Source of the DNA: a virus
Taxonomy: Duplodnaviria; Heunggongvirae; Uroviricota; Caudoviricetes
Virus record (IMG/VR): IMGVR_UViG_2579778842_000017
Coordinates: 5,703-69,702 of that record
Strand: one strand, 5' to 3'
Length of the DNA: 64,000 nt
A model generated the notes under the pieces. It searched no databases, was not told the DNA's origin, and saw nothing but the letters and a program-made list of their open reading frames with translations. The position numbers and the translations under genes are program-made. Positions 11,771 through 39,318 of the stretch are shown piece after piece. Each line of letters begins with the position of its first letter. The first letter of the stretch is position 1.

Positions 11771-13975
11771 TTACTGCTGTGGTTGTTGCTGAGTTGATTT
11801 TTGCAGGATGCTGCTGATGTCCATGCGCTGCGCATGGCCTTGCGCCTGACTTTTCAGGACAAGCTCTGCATCAGCACGGGCATTATCTCCTTGCTGTTGC
11901 TGGAACTGTCCGAGCAGTTTCAGCGCCTCACGGATATCAGATTTTTGCTGGCTATCGGCAGATGCGAGGATTTTCACAACATTTGCCGCTGCAACCTGAG
12001 CATCCGTCTGTGCCTGGAATGCTTTAACCTGAATGGCTGCCTGCTCGTTCTGCGCTTTCTGCAATTCAGCCTGACCAGCAAGAAGCTGACCTTGCGCTGC
12101 AACCATAGCCGGATCTGGCTGACTGGCCTGTTGTTGTTTCGCCTGTTCAACCATCTGCTGTTCTTCAGGCGTTCTCGGCTTGATAACGCCAGACAGAAGC
12201 AACTGATTGCGGTTGTATTCTTTCAGGTCGTCCATCCCTTCGCCGTCCATATTGTCGAGAATCATCGACGATACAAGGTCGTGCTTCGGCGTTCCTGGTG
12301 GGATAAGTGCCAGCATGGAAAGTAACGACTTAACCGTTGCGTCACGGCGAGTAGCGAACGACTGACCGACATCGACAGTCACTTCATAGTTACCCTGCGA
12401 AAGGTCGTTAAGCGCGATAACCTGCCCTGTCTGACGGTCAACCACTTCACCAGTCATCAGCGCCACGTCATCGCTGCCGTCCTCATTAACGATACGCATC
12501 GGCGTATCGCTGCCATAGACTTCACGCGCCATAGAAAGCCACACAACGCCAGCGCGACGCATAGATTTAGCCATGTTGTCCATGTAGATATAGGACTGCG
12601 TGTCCATCCGGTTAAAAATGCTATCAACGGTATCAGTAGCGACGTTGCTCGGCATGTTCTCAAGCTGCGACGCACCTGTAATTTGCTGAATAGCCGTTCC
12701 GGTGTACTGCAATAGCCCGGCAAGAGCTGGAGGCATTTGTGTCGGAGGCGTATAACTGCTGACCTGAGCCTGCGCAGTAATATCTCCGTTTTTGTTTTTC
12801 AGACTGACCATCGGCAGGAACGCCGGGCGCTTTTTGTTGCGCTCCGCCCAATGAGTGGCGAGAGGACCAGGAATCATGTCAACATCAACTACAGGAATGC
12901 CATCACCGCCAGCCTGAGTAGCGTTATCTGCAATCATGGAAACCATCAGGTTCTCAAGACGCTGTGCATCCATCGCTTTTGCTGCGTGTCCTTCAATTCG
13001 CTCCTGATTATCAACAAATGAGCGACGCCCATATACCGGGATGAGAGGAATATGTTCGCCCGGAATACGCTTCGGTTCTTCCAGCCATTCAGCGCCAGAC
13101 AGAAGACCGCAATAAACGCGGCGCTTCTTCACCGTTCGCTCGCCAATCAGTTCGAATGCACCATCGGTCAGTTCGTCGACAATATCTTTTATTTGCTCTT
13201 CATCATAGATTGCCGTTTCTCCGCTAACAGGGTTGCGCCACGCCGTGATCTTCACCTTCTCTATGCGAACTTCGTAGTAGCGTCCAACATAGATGGCATC
13301 TGGCGTTGACCAGTCATATTGAGTGCCAGTGTTATCACGAGAAAGGCTTGCCGCGGTGGAATCAGGGTATTCAGCCTCGAACGCTTTGGGCGTCATGGAG
13401 AACATTTCCATAGCCCACATAGCATCAGAGCGGTCATATTGCTTGCTGTCCTGATCAAAGAAGACGCATGTCGCTGGGTCGTAAACAGGAAGAAGGCTGA
13501 TGCGTCGCTGCTCGTTACTCGGATCCATTTCATCTTCGTAATCGGCACACATGCGGAAACAACCGAATCCGCCCGTTACAGCATCATCAAATGCGTTATC
13601 ACACGCTTCGCCACCGGATGTTTCCTGATAGTCAGCGCGGAATTTGCCGTTCATCTTTTCGGCTAACGCTTCCGATGCCTTATCGTCCTTAGGCCTGAAT
13701 TTAACGCTGATGCGATTCTGTCGATACTCGCCAATGATGCGATCACATTCACGGGCAATCTTATTCAGTTCAAAGCGCGGGTAATGCTCAAACCTGCCTT
13801 CATCAAATGAGTAACCAGCGTTTGTGCTGCCTTCCCACTGTGCGCCGGACACCCGGACGAAACGTTGAGCCTCAATAATCTGCTCACGCATATCCTTCGT
13901 TGCTGACCAGGCATTATCAAAGTTGCACAGCACCTTGCGATGCCAGTCAGTCATCTTTCTATCATCAGCCATCAT
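11771..13975 (-). CDS. portal protein, P22 gp1-like
   Basis: Track ORF 11771..13987; start refined to ATG at 13975 overlapping the terminase stop; C-terminal Gln-rich barrel region resembles P22 portal. Confidence 0.85.
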   Translation of the reverse strand: MMADDRKMTDWHRKVLCNFDNAWSATKDMREQIIEAQRFVRVSGAQWEGSTNAGYSFDEGRFEHYPRFELNKIARECDRIIGEYRQNRISVKFRPKDDKASEALAEKMNGKFRADYQETSGGEACDNAFDDAVTGGFGCFRMCADYEDEMDPSNEQRRISLLPVYDPATCVFFDQDSKQYDRSDAMWAMEMFSMTPKAFEAEYPDSTAASLSRDNTGTQYDWSTPDAIYVGRYYEVRIEKVKITAWRNPVSGETAIYDEEQIKDIVDELTDGAFELIGERTVKKRRVYCGLLSGAEWLEEPKRIPGEHIPLIPVYGRRSFVDNQERIEGHAAKAMDAQRLENLMVSMIADNATQAGGDGIPVVDVDMIPGPLATHWAERNKKRPAFLPMVSLKNKNGDITAQAQVSSYTPPTQMPPALAGLLQYTGTAIQQITGASQLENMPSNVATDTVDSIFNRMDTQSYIYMDNMAKSMRRAGVVWLSMAREVYGSDTPMRIVNEDGSDDVALMTGEVVDRQTGQVIALNDLSQGNYEVTVDVGQSFATRRDATVKSLLSMLALIPPGTPKHDLVSSMILDNMDGEGMDDLKEYNRNQLLLSGVIKPRTPEEQQMVEQAKQQQASQPDPAMVAAQGQLLAGQAELQKAQNEQAAIQVKAFQAQTDAQVAAANVVKILASADSQQKSDIREALKLLGQFQQQQGDNARADAELVLKSQAQGHAQRMDISSILQKSTQQQPQQ

Positions 13976-15468
13976 CCAACTCCGCAAGGTATGTTGTAGC
14001 TTGAGTAATCAATCTCTTTAGGATCTTTGATGTCTCGCATCTGTATTGCAAAACGCCTCATCATGTAGCCATAGCGAACAGCAGAAAGGATGTCGTCATT
14101 TAGCTTGACGATCTTCCCGTTCTCATCGCGGTGATACAGACGAAACTCTTCAAAGAATGGCTCGCAGGTGTTAAATACCTTGAAACGACCGTCGAGCATC
14201 ATGTCGCGTATCTCTGCTATCCCGGGTTCGACCGCATTACCTCCATCAGGCCATGTTGCATGATCTGGCAACATGTCGAACCCAGCTTCGGCGTATTGTT
14301 CCTTGAGCTGAGCGCCGCCTCCCTTTTCGTGCTGATGCCCGTCATGAGGCCAAGCCGTAGGGGTGTTTTTGCTCCATGCTTTAACAGCACTCCATGCCTC
14401 TGTCGCCTTCTTCTGTTTGGCCTTCCAGACGCGAGAAAGATAAATCACGTCCTCGTCTTTATCCCACCAAAGCTGGATATGTGCCTGTGGGTGATCCCAT
14501 CCGAAGTCCATTGCATTGATGACGTAGAAGTGATCAGGACACTCGAACGGCTGACACTTAATCGTCTCTTCCGGTATCTGGAAGATTCGACCGCTACCCA
14601 TCGTAGGAATACCGCGAGCACGCGCCTCTCTCTCATGCTCGGGATAGGATGCGATGATTTGCTCTTTCTGTTCGTCTGTGTAGTGCTCAGCGTCATAGAT
14701 GGTCATGTTGACCACTTTCTGCGACTTGCTGGGATTCTTCAGGAACTTGGTAACAACGTCAGACATCCCCATCAGCGGGGTAAACGTCAGAATTGAGAAT
14801 TGCCCGTATTTGTTGGTACGGGTAAGACCTTCGCCATAAATGCTGTATGGTGGCTCTTCGTCAAACCACACGCCGTGGATTGTGTCACCCTGCCAGCGAG
14901 CGCGGCCTTGCGAGTATGGTTTGAAGTAGCAGATTGAAATGCCATCTTCAACGCCATCAGCCGTGTGATGCTTAACCAGAAGATGATCAACAAGGTTCGG
15001 AAAGAAAGGAGACTTCTTCCAGCTAATGATGTCTTCTTTAGGTATGGAACCGTAGCCTGGCTCATCATTCTCTTCGATACGACCACACAGGATGCGTTGA
15101 GTCGTTTTGGTTACAGTCTCGTTTGTCTCGCCGCCAATCCAGAAGACAACAGGCTCATAGAAACGCTTACCTTTCCACTCACCGCCATATTTACCATCAG
15201 CAGGATAGCCTTTTGTGCCCGGGTAACGCCCGGTAAGGTGAAACGCGACTTCAGCAGCACCAGTAAATGACTTACCAAGCTGGTTACCAGCCATAAAACA
15301 TCGCTCTGGATAGTCATGCCCGGCGTCGATGAACTCACGCTGTTTGCTGTATGGCGTAAATTCATATAGCAGGTGTGTGTTACGGTAGTTCTCTTCTTCT
15401 TCGAGTAGCTCGAGCAATTCGATTTGCTCTTCGTCGCTCAAGTTATCAAGAATCGCGTCCAGTTCCAC
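13972..15468 (-). CDS. terminase large subunit, P22 gp2-like
   Basis: 498 aa; size and position match P22 gp2. Confidence 0.9.
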
Positions 15469-15934
15469 GGTTGAATAGCTCCTTGATACGAGAGCGCCGC
15501 TTATCGCGATCTCCCTTATCAGGTGTCACGTCTTCAACTTGCGACTGCTCTTTGAGGCCCAAATCACGGGCGATGATGTTAGCGTTGAGAAGGTCAGCGG
15601 CTGCGCCAGAGAATTTCTGGTCGTAGATGATGTCTTCCGCTCGTGATGTGACGTCAGAAAAACCTTCCATTGACCGGAAGGTTCCCCATGTTTGCCTGGT
15701 GATATCAAGGAAGGTACACAATCCTGAAATAGTCATGGCTCGCATCTTAGGGACATTAGCCTTAATTATTTCTCCCTGATATGAAAATACCTTACCCTCC
15801 CATAGCGGGTTATCATCAGCCCACTCGAAGTATTCACAACAAGCAGCCCACAGCGCCTCAGGCGATTCGAATTTAGGATTTCGCCCATGACTACTGCGGG
15901 CCTCCCAAAATCGGTTGCCCTTTGGTGCTGCCAT
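15446..15934 (-). CDS. terminase small subunit, P22 gp3-like
   Basis: 162 aa, same length as P22 gp3; directly upstream of the large subunit. Confidence 0.8.
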
Positions 15935-16013
15935 ATTGATTATTTCCCTTCTGCTTGCTTATCCCATTCATCGCGGAATTTGGATGGGTTGTCGAAACCT
16001 TGAGTTGCCATGT

Positions 16014-16256
16014 TTATGCTCCGGTAGTGAACAGGTCTAACGCTTCCTTCGATTTACGCACCGCTTCGATTGTGCGGGTCGTGATATCTGAATTAGCGCC
16101 GCCTGACTGGAAGTGAATTTTGAATAGCTCAAGCTTCAGCTCGTCAGTGCCAATGAACTGAAATGCTTCTTCTGCGGCTGCGTTCTGGTTCATGACCAGT
16201 TTGTAAATCTCTAGCTGGAATTTCTGTTCTTCAGTCATGGGAATAATCTCTGCCAT
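16014..16256 (-). CDS. hypothetical protein (P22 orf80-like position)
   Basis: 80 aa between lysis genes and terminase. Confidence 0.45.
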   Translation of the reverse strand: MAEIIPMTEEQKFQLEIYKLVMNQNAAAEEAFQFIGTDELKLELFKIHFQSGGANSDITTRTIEAVRKSKEALDLFTTGA

Positions 16257-16558
16257 TGTTGGCTCCGTTTATCCGTTAAAAGGGATATCAGTTAAGTTAT
16301 CCCGTGTAGGGTATAAGCCATTGTCGAGACCACTCATTGAATGGTCTCTGCAATAACCGATGTCTTTCCATCAGTCCGCCACCACAAAGAATCTTTTTTG
16401 CCATAAGGCAGGAGGTTCATCTTTCAGTGGCTGTCAGTGTTATTTCCCCACTTTCTGGCTTGGGTTGTTTCGCTGTACTGCCGTAACTGGTTACCCAGAA
16501 TAAATTCCGGTTTCATTATAAAGCCCACCCGTAGATAGGCTTTGTAATGCCTACATGG

Positions 16559-17161
16559 TTAAATGATTTGCCAGTCTTCAGCCATCAGGTCGCCAATGGA
16601 TGGAACCCATGTAGCAAGGCGGTTCTGTGAGTTTTTCAATACAAGCGTGTCATTGAAAGTTGACTCGCCAACATATTCGCCAAAGCCATAACCCAACGCA
16701 GACGCTAATTTTTCCCCTTTCACGAGATAAACAAACTGGTCTTTCCCATTCCATCCTGCCCGCTGCAAACTTTTGCCCTGTTTTAACGCTTCCATGGCAA
16801 GGCCGAAACTTAGTCCTGATACCGGACGATAAGCCTTTTCGAATACTTCTTTTGGACTCCAGCTAACGTAGCCATCAAAGCGATCGGTGTTAGGTTTTCC
16901 GCCATCCAGATATTCAACCAGATAGCCTTCGTCCTCGCCGTTTTCTCCGGCAGGAAGCTGCCAGCCACGAAAATCGTTATATGCCTGTCTCGTCATCGGA
17001 AAGGCGTTAATCAGTTTTACGCCAATATGCTGGGTCATAAAATTACCTATGCAGTTGGGAATAAAAAGCCCCGCAAATGCGAGGCTAAATCCTGGTATTT
17101 GTAATGAACTGGCTCTTATCTCAACGCAGCCCCTTACCGCGCGCCAGATGCTCAATATCAA
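16559..17161 (-). CDS. hypothetical protein with possible DUF2829-like core
   Basis: 200 aa (alternative ATG at 17038 gives 159 aa); motif FGLAMEALKQGKSLQRAGWNGK recalled from DUF2829-type phage proteins. Confidence 0.4.
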   Translation of the reverse strand: MILSIWRAVRGCVEIRASSLQIPGFSLAFAGLFIPNCIGNFMTQHIGVKLINAFPMTRQAYNDFRGWQLPAGENGEDEGYLVEYLDGGKPNTDRFDGYVSWSPKEVFEKAYRPVSGLSFGLAMEALKQGKSLQRAGWNGKDQFVYLVKGEKLASALGYGFGEYVGESTFNDTLVLKNSQNRLATWVPSIGDLMAEDWQII

Positions 17162-17260
17162 GCATCAGCAATGAGATGTTTAATCTGGATTCACTCCAGA
17201 AGTGATCATCACCCTGTCTACAGAGCCAGATGTGAAGGATGATGAGTAAAATTATCGCTA

Positions 17261-17698
17261 TCATCGAAGGCATTGCGTCCTGATGTACTCCTGCAGGTAG
17301 TTAACCTGCGCGGTTATCCTGTCGATTCCACTTCGGAGACGGTAATAATTGAGTTCAGCATCTGCTGTAAGTCTTGGGCTTTCTCCATCGCCCATGCTGC
17401 TGGCTCCGGTCGTTGACTTTGCACAGATGGCGGCGACTTGCAGGCGCTTACGACCAGCAGAAACATCAGCACGGAGACTTTCGATAGTCGCGTTAGCATC
17501 AGCAAGCTCCTTTGTGTATCTGGCGTCAAGTTCTGCTACATCACGTTGACGCTTCTGCATGTCAGCGATTGTGGATGTGGCCTTATCGCGCTGCTCTTTA
17601 TAGGCGATGGCGTTATCACGGTAATGATTAACAGCCCATGACAGGCAGACGATGATGCAGATAATCAGAGCGGAGATAATCGCGGTTACTCTGCTCAT
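17261..17698 (-). CDS. Rz: i-spanin (Rz-like)
   Basis: 145 aa, N-terminal TM segment, follows lysozyme. Confidence 0.8.
17314..17499 (-). CDS. Rz1: o-spanin (Rz1-like) embedded in Rz in the +1 frame
   Basis: 61 aa from internal Met; lipobox LLVVSAC; Pro-rich mature part. Confidence 0.6.
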
Positions 17699-18171
17699 GC
17701 CTCAATCTCTCTTACCGTTCCGCCAGCTTCTTTGAATTTTGCAATCAGGCTGTCAGCCTTATGCTCGAACTGACCATAACCAGCGCCAGGCAGTGAAGCC
17801 CAGATATTGCTGCAACGGTCGATTGCCTGACGGATATCACCGCGATCAATCATGGGTAAAGCACCACGTTCTTTAATCTGCTGCAATGCCACAGCATCCT
17901 GGCTTTTGGGAGAGAAGTCTTTCAGGCCAAGCTGCTTGCGGTAGGCATCCCACCAACGGGAAAGAAGCTGGTAACGTCCTGCTGCTGTTGATTTGAGTTT
18001 GGGGTTTAGCGTGACAAGTTTGCGAGGGTGATCGGAGTAATCAGTGAATAGCTCTCCGCCAACAATGACGTCATAACCATGATTCCTGGTTTTCTGACGT
18101 CCGTTATCAGTTCCCTCTGACCACGCCAGCATATCGAGGAACGCCTTACGTTGATTATTGATTTCCACCAT
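17695..18171 (-). CDS. endolysin, T4-type lysozyme (P22 gp19-like)
   Basis: 158 aa; position between holin and Rz. Confidence 0.85.
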
Positions 18172-18478
18172 CTTCTACTCCGGCTTTTTTAGCAGCGAAG
18201 CGTTTGATAAGCGAACCAATCGAGTCAGTACCGATGTAGCCGATGAACACGCTCGTTATATAAGCGAGATTGCTACTTAGTCCGGCGAAGTCGAGAAGGT
18301 CACGAATGAACCAGGCGATAATGGCGCACATCGTTGCGTCGATTACTGTTTTTGTAAACGCACCGCCATTATATCTGCCGCGAAGGTACGCCATTGCAAA
18401 CGCAAGGATTGCCCCGATGCCTTGTTCCTTTGCCGCGAGAATGGCGGCTAACAGGTCATGTTTTTCTGGCATCTTCAT
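18155..18478 (-). CDS. S: holin, lambda S-like
   Basis: 107 aa; sequence [25 protein letters not shown]... near-identical to lambda S as I recall it. Confidence 0.85.
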
Positions 18479-18602
18479 GTCTTACCCCCAATAAGGGGAT
18501 TTGCTCTATTTAATTAGGAATAAGGTCGATTACTGATAGAACAAATCCAGGCTACTGTGTTTAGTAATCAGATTTGTTCGTGACCGATATGCACGGGCAA
18601 AA

Positions 18603-18637
18603 CGGCAGGAGGTTGTTAGCGCGACCTCCTGTCACCC
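18603..18637 (-). terminator. hairpin, possible terminator in the Q-holin gap
   Basis: Stem CAGGAGGT/ACCTCCTG followed on the minus strand by CCGTTTTGCCC. Confidence 0.3.
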
Positions 18638-18874
18638 GCTTTCACGAAGATCATGTGTAGAAGGCCGCAGCGTAACTATCACTGATGAATTCAGGATAGC
18701 CAGTGGATACGGCTCAGTTTGGGTTGTGCTGTTGCTGGGCGGCGATGACGCCTGTACGCATTTGGTGATCCGGTTCTGCTTCCGGTATTCGCTTAATTCA
18801 GCACAACGGAAAGAGCACTCAATGCATTTAAACCAAGCCCCATAAAGGAGAATGCTCTTACCTGTTGCACAGAT

Positions 18875-18935
18875 ATAAAAAATCCCGAAACCGTTATGCA
18901 GGCTCTAACTATTACCTGCGAACTGTTTCGGGATT
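18875..18935 (-). terminator. tR'-like terminator downstream of Q
   Basis: Inverted repeat AATCCCGAAAC/GTTTCGGGATT followed on the minus strand by a U-run; about 210-270 nt past Q, the lambda 6S RNA geometry. Confidence 0.4.
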
Positions 18936-19146
18936 GCATTTTGCAGACCTCTCAGCCTGCGATGGTTGGAGTTCCAGACGATACGTCGAAGTGACCAACT
19001 AGGCGGAATCGGTAGTAAGCGCCGCCTCTTTTTATCTCACTACCACAACGAGCGAATTAACCCATCGTTGGGTCAAATTTACCCAACTTTATTCAAAAAG
19101 TCAATATCATGCCGTTAATATGTTGCCATCCGTGGCAATCATGCTG

Positions 19147-19770
19147 CTAACGTGTGACCGCATTCAAAATGTTGTCTGCGATTGACTCTTCTTTGTGGCA
19201 TTGCACCACCAGAGCGTCATACAGCGGCTTAACAGTGCGTGACCAGGTGGGTTGGGTAAGATTTGGGATTAGCATCGTCACAGCGCGATATGCGGCGCTT
19301 GCTGGCATCCTTGAATAGCCGACACCTTTGCATCTTCCGCATTCTTTCTCAACAACTCTCCCCCACTGCTCTGTTTTTGCTATATCAACCGCACGGCCTG
19401 TACCGTGACAATCTCTGCATCTTGCGCCAGGCGTCGCGGCACTACGGCAATAATCCGCATAAGCGAATGTTGCGAGCACTTGCAGTACCTTTGCCTTAGT
19501 ATTTCCTTCGAGCTTTGCCACACCACGGTATTTCCCCGATACCTTGTGTGCAAATTGCATCAGATAGTTGATAGCCTTTTGTTTGTCGTTCTGGCTGAGT
19601 TCGTGCTTACCACAGAATGCAGCCATTCCGAATCCGGCTTGTGATTGCGCCATCCCCATAGCAGCCATCACATCAGTACCGGAAAGAGAGTCAGAAGCCG
19701 TGGCCCGTGGTGAGTCACTCATCATCGGGCTTTTTGGCGAATGAAATTTAGCCACGCTTTCGAGTCTCAT
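19147..19770 (-). CDS. Q: late gene antiterminator Q
   Basis: 207 aa; recalled as near-identical to lambda Q. Confidence 0.9.
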
Positions 19771-39241: not shown

Positions 39242-39318
39242 TGGCGTGGCATGCAGGATTCGAACCTGCGACCAACCGCTTAGAAGGCGGTTGCTCTGTC
39301 CGACTGAGCTAATGCCAC
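39242..39318 (-). tRNA. tRNA-Arg (anticodon UCU)
   Basis: 77-nt cloverleaf folded by hand: 7-bp acceptor stem, T-loop TTCGAAT, anticodon loop CTTCTAA, 3' CCA encoded; differs from E. coli argU in the acceptor stem. Confidence 0.9.

Follow-up and report, generated by a model that had tools for sequence, protein, structure and literature searches.

The locus and the limits of the gene

The window (by which is meant the whole 64,000-nucleotide stretch of DNA that was analysed) includes a P22-like (Lederbergvirus-type) prophage, and it is within this that the gene of interest lies. Along the minus strand, a Q antiterminator gene is followed by those for holin, endolysin and Rz, then by a 50-aa ORF, the gene itself, a DUF2560 gene, and the small and large terminase genes (Table 1), which agrees with the location between lysis and terminase genes given in an earlier note on this DNA: holin, endolysin and Rz are found on one side and the terminase genes on the other. 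The 50-aa ORF is conserved, is annotated as hypothetical in RefSeq, and corresponds to Kapi1_042 (for which a signal peptide is predicted); it gave no family match in any library searched.

Table 1 Positions of the features discussed. Coordinates refer to the window unless another sequence is named.
Feature	Position	Strand	Remarks
Holin	18155-18478	-	
Endolysin	17695-18171	-	
Rz	17261-17698	-	
50-aa ORF	17121-17273	-	Hydrophobic N-terminus; overlaps end of Rz
Boundary element, ~60 bp	17056..17120	-	Terminator-like hairpin (stem 17086..17067) then T-run; terminator scan and fold
Shine-Dalgarno-like AGGT	17045..17048	-	6 nt upstream of ATG; read from sequence
Two-domain protein gene	16559..17038	-	ATG 17038, TAA stop 16559-16561; ORF list and sequence
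N-terminal conserved module	16820..17038	-	aa 1-73; small beta-barrel plus two helices (predicted); no Pfam family
Tad2-like domain (PF11195, formerly DUF2829)	16562..16816	-	aa 75-159
Motif quoted in the earlier note	16742..16807	-	aa 78-99; predicted helix alpha1, strand beta1 and W-N ligand loop
Two 3' stem-loops	16514-16549 and 16495-16510 (16495..16549)	-	Directly after the stop codon; no U-run after
DUF2560 gene	16014-16256	-	
Small terminase	15446-15934	-	
Large terminase	13972-15468	-	
Kapi1_043	L002, 2661-3182		Phage vB_EcoP_Kapi1
Huey CDS0064	L001, 997-1497		
N4 gp49	EF056009, 34003..34485		gp48-gp49 pair is L004, 2109-2962

The earlier note had taken the gene to be the 200-aa ORF at 16559..17161, and the motif that it quoted, FGLAMEALKQGKSLQRAGWNGK, is indeed encoded within this ORF; both the motif and the minus-strand gene are real, but the start had been placed too far upstream. 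The long ORF begins with TTG and reads through the terminator-like hairpin of the boundary element. The ATG at 17038 (MTQHIGVKL...), on the other hand, is preceded by AGGT, and is the start used also in the annotated genes Huey CDS0064 and Kapi1_043 and in the RefSeq E. coli protein WP_001535928.1. Taking together the hairpin inside the long ORF, the AGGT and the starts of the orthologs, the true gene is therefore the shorter one, encoding 159 aa, and the 200-aa ORF is over-extended. Its DNA is 100% identical to that of an E. coli ETEC4085 gene labelled in RefSeq as 'DUF2829 domain-containing protein'. The result is of use for correcting annotation, the label being 'DUF2829' in RefSeq and 'anti-CRISPR' in Huey, and the start codon being in need of trimming.

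Searched by itself, the boundary element of roughly 60 bp is present in about 1,500 of the 5,426 complete E. coli genomes, and in every case it comes directly behind the 50-aa ORF next to Rz. It therefore represents the conserved terminus of the lambdoid lysis cassette, beyond which the variable cargo begins. An Rfam scan of 15900-19200 gave nothing above noise, so the element is not a known RNA family. As for the 3' stem-loops, their predicted folding energy is -25 kcal/mol (z = -4.1, with none of 200 shuffled sequences as stable), and the 3' flank is conserved in related prophages; because a U-run is absent, they may act to stabilise the transcript or to mark the cassette boundary. A promoter scan found no sigma-70-like promoter on the gene's strand within 15800-17800, and we infer that expression, its timing included, would come from the Q-dependent late transcript; the gene would then form a self-contained unit between hairpins that lies behind the lysis cassette and is read as part of the late operon. 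According to a 2026 transcriptome paper, no prophage transcript is more abundant in cultures of the lysogen than that of the positional ortholog Kapi1_043; a promoter of its own was considered as the source of this high level, and was set aside when no promoter-like site was found on the strand of the window gene.

The 5' half of the gene occurs in only 45 of the 5,426 complete E. coli genomes, and the window allele in 37. In the sister prophage of ETEC4085 there is an additional gene of the Gp49 family (PF13876, the Acb4 anti-CBASS sponge) between the Tad2 and DUF2560 genes, and this cassette of about 420 bp is cleanly absent from the window (~16257-16340, compared with L003 19372-19900 for ETEC4085). 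Huey also has an Acb4-type gene at the same locus, and in other P22-like phages the slot holds Rha or GIY-YIG genes. Such neighbours imply that the slot is a cargo site, often occupied by anti-signalling genes, and they mark the interval between Rz and the small terminase of P22-like prophages as a place where such cargo may be sought; what lies between lysis cassette and terminase genes would be swappable. Each cassette at the slot seems to end in its own hairpin. A suggested link to the BTP1 gene st313-td was rejected, as that gene is bstA, which adjoins cI and is unrelated.

Two observations from elsewhere in the window may be added here. At 23163-25556 on the minus strand the prophage has a DnaB-like replicative helicase of 797 aa in which a domain of LAGLIDADG type lies between the N- and C-terminal helicase domains, which suggests an intein. 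Adjoining the P22-like prophage, from about 36400 to 64000 on the plus strand, is a second phage-like region with a small terminase (PF03592), a head-tail connector of T7 type (PF12236) and a major capsid protein of GP7 type; a tRNA-Arg(tct) is found at 39242-39318 on the minus strand.

The Tad2-like domain

The motif had originally been likened to DUF2829 proteins, and that family associated with the Thoeris anti-defence protein Tad2. A profile search bears out both points: aa 75-159 match PF11195, now named 'Thoeris anti-defense 2-like domain', from end to end (profile positions 2-73 of 73) with a score of 77.5 bits and E 1.2e-21, the cut-off for this family being 25 bits. It is, however, just the C-terminal half that matches; the first 73 residues make up a conserved domain of their own, which had been overlooked. 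Amongst PDB sequences searched with phmmer, SPO1 Tad2 (8sme, 8smf, 8smg and 8wje) is matched at E 5e-25 along all 85 residues of the domain, residues 75-159 aligning with chain residues 5-89 without gaps and at about 50% identity. ModTad2 comes next at 2e-18, and SptTad2, HgmTad2 and AcrIIA7 are much weaker.

Structure prediction, which had also been proposed in the earlier note, points the same way. In an AlphaFold2 model built from 113 homologs (pLDDT 90.6), the predicted elements of this half of the protein are H78-86, E91-93, E102-106, H108-115, E131-135, E141-143, H148-152 and E156-158, and this order, i.e. helix-strand-strand-helix-strand-strand-helix-strand, is that described for SPO1 Tad2. 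The model has the features of the Tad2 fold, namely an N-terminal helix, a five-stranded antiparallel sheet, and short helices in the beta2-beta3 and beta4-beta5 loops. Using Foldseek, it superposes on the SPO1 Tad2 chains of 8wje and 8smf with target-normalised TM scores of 0.81-0.92, and every one of the 24 significant PDB matches is an entry of the Tad2 family.

The residues of SPO1 Tad2 that make van der Waals and polar contacts with the ligand are W25, N26, W73, S76 and D79, and all of these are identical in the window protein (W96, N97, W144, S147 and D150, respectively), being kept in 109-113 of the 113 two-domain homologs. The other five of the ten residues of the SPO1 ligand environment are changed (I63L, T65N, D67Q, H71A and T78G), at positions that lie on the adenine side or co-ordinate water, and that are variable across the Tad2 family rather than family-defining. 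Between N97 and W144 there are 46 residues, exactly as in SPO1 Tad2. On the basis of the sequence and of the predicted structure, aa 75-159 are thus assigned as a member of the Tad2 family. The likeness to SPO1 Tad2 (Gp34.65) extends to fold, domain length, the five contacts and the short beta2-beta3 insert; the differences are that SPO1 Tad2 is a single domain of 89 aa, as opposed to a two-domain protein, and that its F44, which occludes the second pocket, is a Leu at the corresponding position in the window protein.

Published precedent and the question of signal specificity

SPO1 Tad2 is a homotetramer with two pockets, located at protomer interfaces, that bind 1''-3' gcADPR (i.e. 3'cADPR, the signal made by TIR in Thoeris defence). 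With this signal sequestered, the ThsA effector stays inactive, NAD+ is spared and the phage completes its cycle. Homotetramers have been shown for SPO1, Hgm and Mod Tad2.

For a protein that is almost the same as that of the window, the function has been shown by experiment. In the work of Yirmiya et al. (bioRxiv 10.1101/2023.05.01.538930; Nature 2024), Suppl. Table 12 marks a 159-aa protein of E. coli AIEC_UM149 (IMG gene 2729517083) as 'Experimentally verified: Yes'. This protein has the same two-domain architecture as the window protein and is identical to it at 157 of 159 positions (98.7%), the sole differences being A94V and S126P, neither of which is a known contact residue. According to the main text of that study, four of five chosen Tad2 homologs inhibited Thoeris when co-expressed in B. 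subtilis, with which the four 'Yes' rows and the one 'Tested, not active' row (Myroides) of Suppl. Table 12 are consistent; the verification of the AIEC_UM149 protein was against Bacillus cereus Thoeris in B. subtilis, not against an E. coli system. It is the full-length E. coli protein, N-terminal module included, that according to this source inhibits type I Thoeris.

The anti-defence role that had previously been put forward with low confidence is supported by this precedent, and the published work already accounts for the gene: its product is an unremarkable Tad2, nearly identical to one that has been verified by experiment, and so the gene in itself represents one further annotated copy of a verified anti-Thoeris sponge. 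Taking sequence, model and precedent together, we put the probability that the product is a Tad2-family protein with which the phage counters host defence at roughly 0.88. The window protein would inhibit type I Thoeris through its C-terminal domain, aa 75-159, probably by sequestering 1''-3' gcADPR in interfacial pockets of a tetramer, as SPO1 Tad2 does. Kapi1_043 was itself proposed to be Tad2-like in the 2026 transcriptome paper, in which the Kapi1 host is without Thoeris.

Since the specificity of Tad2 is known to drift, the preferred signal in E. coli hosts could be different or broader. ModTad2 (~40% identical) binds His-ADPR and not 3'cADPR, and other Tad2 homologs inhibit Thoeris of types I, II and IV, CBASS and Pycsar. 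One might then suppose that the main natural target is His-ADPR (type II), N7-cADPR (type IV Thoeris) or a cyclic nucleotide instead of 3'cADPR, and it is true that the adenine-facing residues differ from those of SPO1 Tad2, and that A142 and the S-x-G/S-D pattern resemble ModTad2. However, the near-identical AIEC_UM149 ortholog did inhibit type I Thoeris, the nearest solved relative is the 3'cADPR binder SPO1 Tad2 (91 bits, as against 70 for ModTad2), and the short insert speaks against a cyclic-dinucleotide pocket, so that this alternative target is considered unlikely.

The matter of the insert deserves some comment. HgmTad2/AcrIIA7, SptTad2 and ModTad2 belong to the same family and share the tetrameric sponge mechanism of Tad2 generally, but they have longer inserts that create a further pocket, in which cGG/cGAMP or cUMP is bound, or their specificity has altered (His-ADPR); in HgmTad2 and SptTad2 it is an insertion of 35-41 residues after beta2 that forms this second, cyclic-dinucleotide pocket. 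The window protein falls outside the long-insert subgroup, having 46 residues between the N and W contacts as compared with 60 in Kapi1_043, and because its insert is short and of SPO1 type the second pocket is probably absent. For the same reason, the idea of a cyclic-di-GMP sponge acting in the lysogen was set aside for the window allele. Kapi1_043 and Huey CDS0064 occupy the same P22-like locus as the window gene, with an N-terminal module that is 96-100% identical and the same last eight or so residues, but between these they carry a swapped Tad2 core, the inserts of which (60 and 53 residues, respectively) are closer to the long, cyclic-dinucleotide-binding type.

In Huey, both CDS0064 and its Acb4-type neighbour are labelled 'anti-CRISPR protein', a label that is probably outdated. 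Following it, and given that AcrIIA7 contains DUF2829, the window protein might be read as an anti-CRISPR of AcrIIA7 type, yet its similarity to AcrIIA7/HgmTad2 is weak and covers just the first 36 or so residues of the domain (E 4e-6 to 1e-5). The CRISPR-Cas systems of E. coli are of types I-E and I-F, and to our knowledge type II-A is not among them. The authors of the Tad2 work regard DUF2829 proteins as anti-Thoeris and not anti-CRISPR, and binding to Cas9 was never shown; an anti-CRISPR role is accordingly very improbable indeed.

The N-terminal module

Given the published precedent for the gene as a whole, it is the N-terminal module that is the only part of the finding meriting further effort. 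This module, aa 1-73, would be a separate unit. Neither the protein, nor the module, nor the neighbouring small ORFs gave any match in PADLOC or NCBIfam, the module has no Pfam match, and aa 1-73 show no sequence or fold similarity to Tad1, Acb2, Acb4, Sequestin, Lockin or TadIV-1. Its AlphaFold2 model has a pLDDT of 94, and it is acidic (pI 4.9). Conservation is high: K8, R17, Y20, R24, W26, Y43, Y57 and W60 are invariant or nearly so, and at 31 of about 72 positions the conservation across clusters reaches 90% or more, including surface loops rich in D, E and N. The median identity to the query is 77% for the module, as opposed to 47% for the Tad2 half, and in some homologs the module is 100% identical with a Tad2 domain that is 41% identical; a constant module joined to a divergent Tad2 half implies that the latter is swapped by recombination.

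In a profile search of 1.84 billion cluster representatives (clustered at 50% identity), 3,049 proteins with the module reached E<=1e-3, its place in them being variously N-terminal, internal or C-terminal. Members of the family are present in N4 gp49, in P22-like prophages, and in crAss-like, Vibrio, Pseudomonas and Clostridium phages. Among the best 141 of these 3,049 representatives, the partner named by Pfam is Tad2 in 47, Sequestin (PF21825) in 40, Acb4 (PF13876) in 15 and an Acb2/Tad1 hairpin in one; 16 consist of the module alone. In 32 of the best 141 the partner was not named by HMMs; these are mostly singletons, several being degenerate Tad2 C-termini or probable frameshifts, and the only one that recurred is a Lockin-like domain, found in two representatives and sharing 58% identity with one of the tabulated Lockin homologs. 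Triple arrays also exist (Acb4-module-Sequestin and module-Sequestin-Tad2), as do stand-alone module genes of 73-78 aa in isolated phages; that of Erwinia phage phiEaP8 adjoins the virion RNA polymerase and has no sponge gene next to it. The module is thus among the most conserved small domains in these phages, and it travels with several families of immune-signal sponges.

The Sequestin and Tad2 homolog tables of previous papers each contain about 100 sequence-motif matches to the module, which is not mentioned in the passages of those papers that were searched. The fusion screen that discovered Sequestin queried Pfam families only, so that a module lacking a Pfam family would have been missed; one 2026 preprint calls the module a 'fold with unknown function'. 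In phage N4, gp49 is built in the same way (module plus Tad2 domain, 160 aa), differing in that its module is 54% identical and its insert has 41 residues. Its neighbour gp48 belongs to PF13876/Acb4, paralleling the pair in the ETEC4085 prophage, and gp49 sits in an N4-like anti-signalling hotspot adjoining the virion RNA polymerase; no test of it was found in the papers searched. Since the PF13876 protein of EF056009 is gp48, the name 'N4 Gp49' that Pfam gives to this family is at odds with the numbering of the record.

A more distant relative is RyR Tad (Pectobacterium phage vB_PatP_CB1 gp68), the N-domain of which is a divergent member of the module family: residues 2-81 of gp68 are matched by the module HMM at 36.6 bits, the gp68 homolog YenMTG1_208 is found by Foldseek at E 1.2e-4, and gp68 and the module share the motif K-L-V-x-A-x-P-M-T ... 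E-G-Y-L-V-x-Y ... Y-x-S-W-S-P. RyR Tad differs in that the module is fused not to Tad2 but to a sponge made of ryanodine-receptor repeats, and in that part of the acidic loop is missing.

The module belongs to an unnamed family of phage domains without a Pfam entry. As to what it does, one reading, which we rate as less likely than not, is that the family is itself a counter-defence unit, most likely a sponge for some signal that its partners do not cover (most simply, one other than 3'cADPR), making the whole a two-in-one inhibitor. Proteins that would be analogous are already seen in Acb4-Tad2 and Acb4-Sequestin fusions. The range of partners among the best 141 of the 3,049 representatives, together with the Lockin-like domains and RyR Tad, the free placement of the module at either end or in the middle of chained arrays, and the autonomous copies, including that at the virion RNA polymerase hotspot of phiEaP8, are all consistent with such a role. 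Guilt by fusion is, moreover, the logic by which Sequestin was found, though that search was confined to Pfam families. The small size of the module and its conserved aromatic and basic residues also fit, and the RyR Tad crystal shows it as a domain-swapped dimer, the pockets of sponges being usually located at oligomer interfaces. There are nevertheless clear points on the other side: the divergent copy in RyR Tad (gp68 aa 1-86) had 'no apparent activity' when tested alone (which was against type I Thoeris only), the RyR Tad ligand is located in the C-terminal domain, the acidic character of the module differs from the positively charged pockets of known sponges, and the module is so much better conserved than the sponges joined to it that a role in structure or in binding a protein would fit equally well.

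A competing view, to which we give only slightly less weight, is that the module serves only as a scaffold for dimerisation, stability or valency that aids whatever sponge is attached to it. In the RyR Tad crystal, the N-domain, which exchanges its strand beta1, and the C-terminal domain each take part in forming the dimer; the inactivity of that N-domain alone against type I Thoeris is as would be expected for a scaffold; and in the window protein only about three residues join the module to Tad2 helix alpha1, which forms the tetramer core. Against this, Tad2, Acb4 and Lockin oligomerise unaided, and activity is seen in single-domain Tad2 proteins of 81-92 aa. A pure scaffold would hardly be expected to occur as a stand-alone gene with no sponge gene beside it, and the proportion of highly conserved positions exceeds what a dimer interface would need. 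The unusually strong conservation would also be in keeping with a scaffold, or with binding to a host protein that is itself conserved.

The consequences would be of some interest. Were the module to bind a signal or a host factor, many of the 'Tad2', 'Sequestin' and 'Acb4' proteins that have been studied would be bifunctional; were it specifically a sponge, the window protein would neutralise two signals at once. The counter-defence reading, if true, would amount to a new inhibitor family, represented in the model phage N4 and testable with simple constructs.

Lastly, some metagenomic proteins with the module may be mentioned. P0357, P0346, P0375, P0335, P0353, P0331 and P0330, which are 260-310 aa in length, combine the module with Acb4, Sequestin and/or Tad2 in varied orders, and P0355 (354 aa) is a module-plus-Tad2 protein with HNH and AP2 domains inserted into, or joined to, its Tad2 region, in what looks like a homing-endonuclease insertion.
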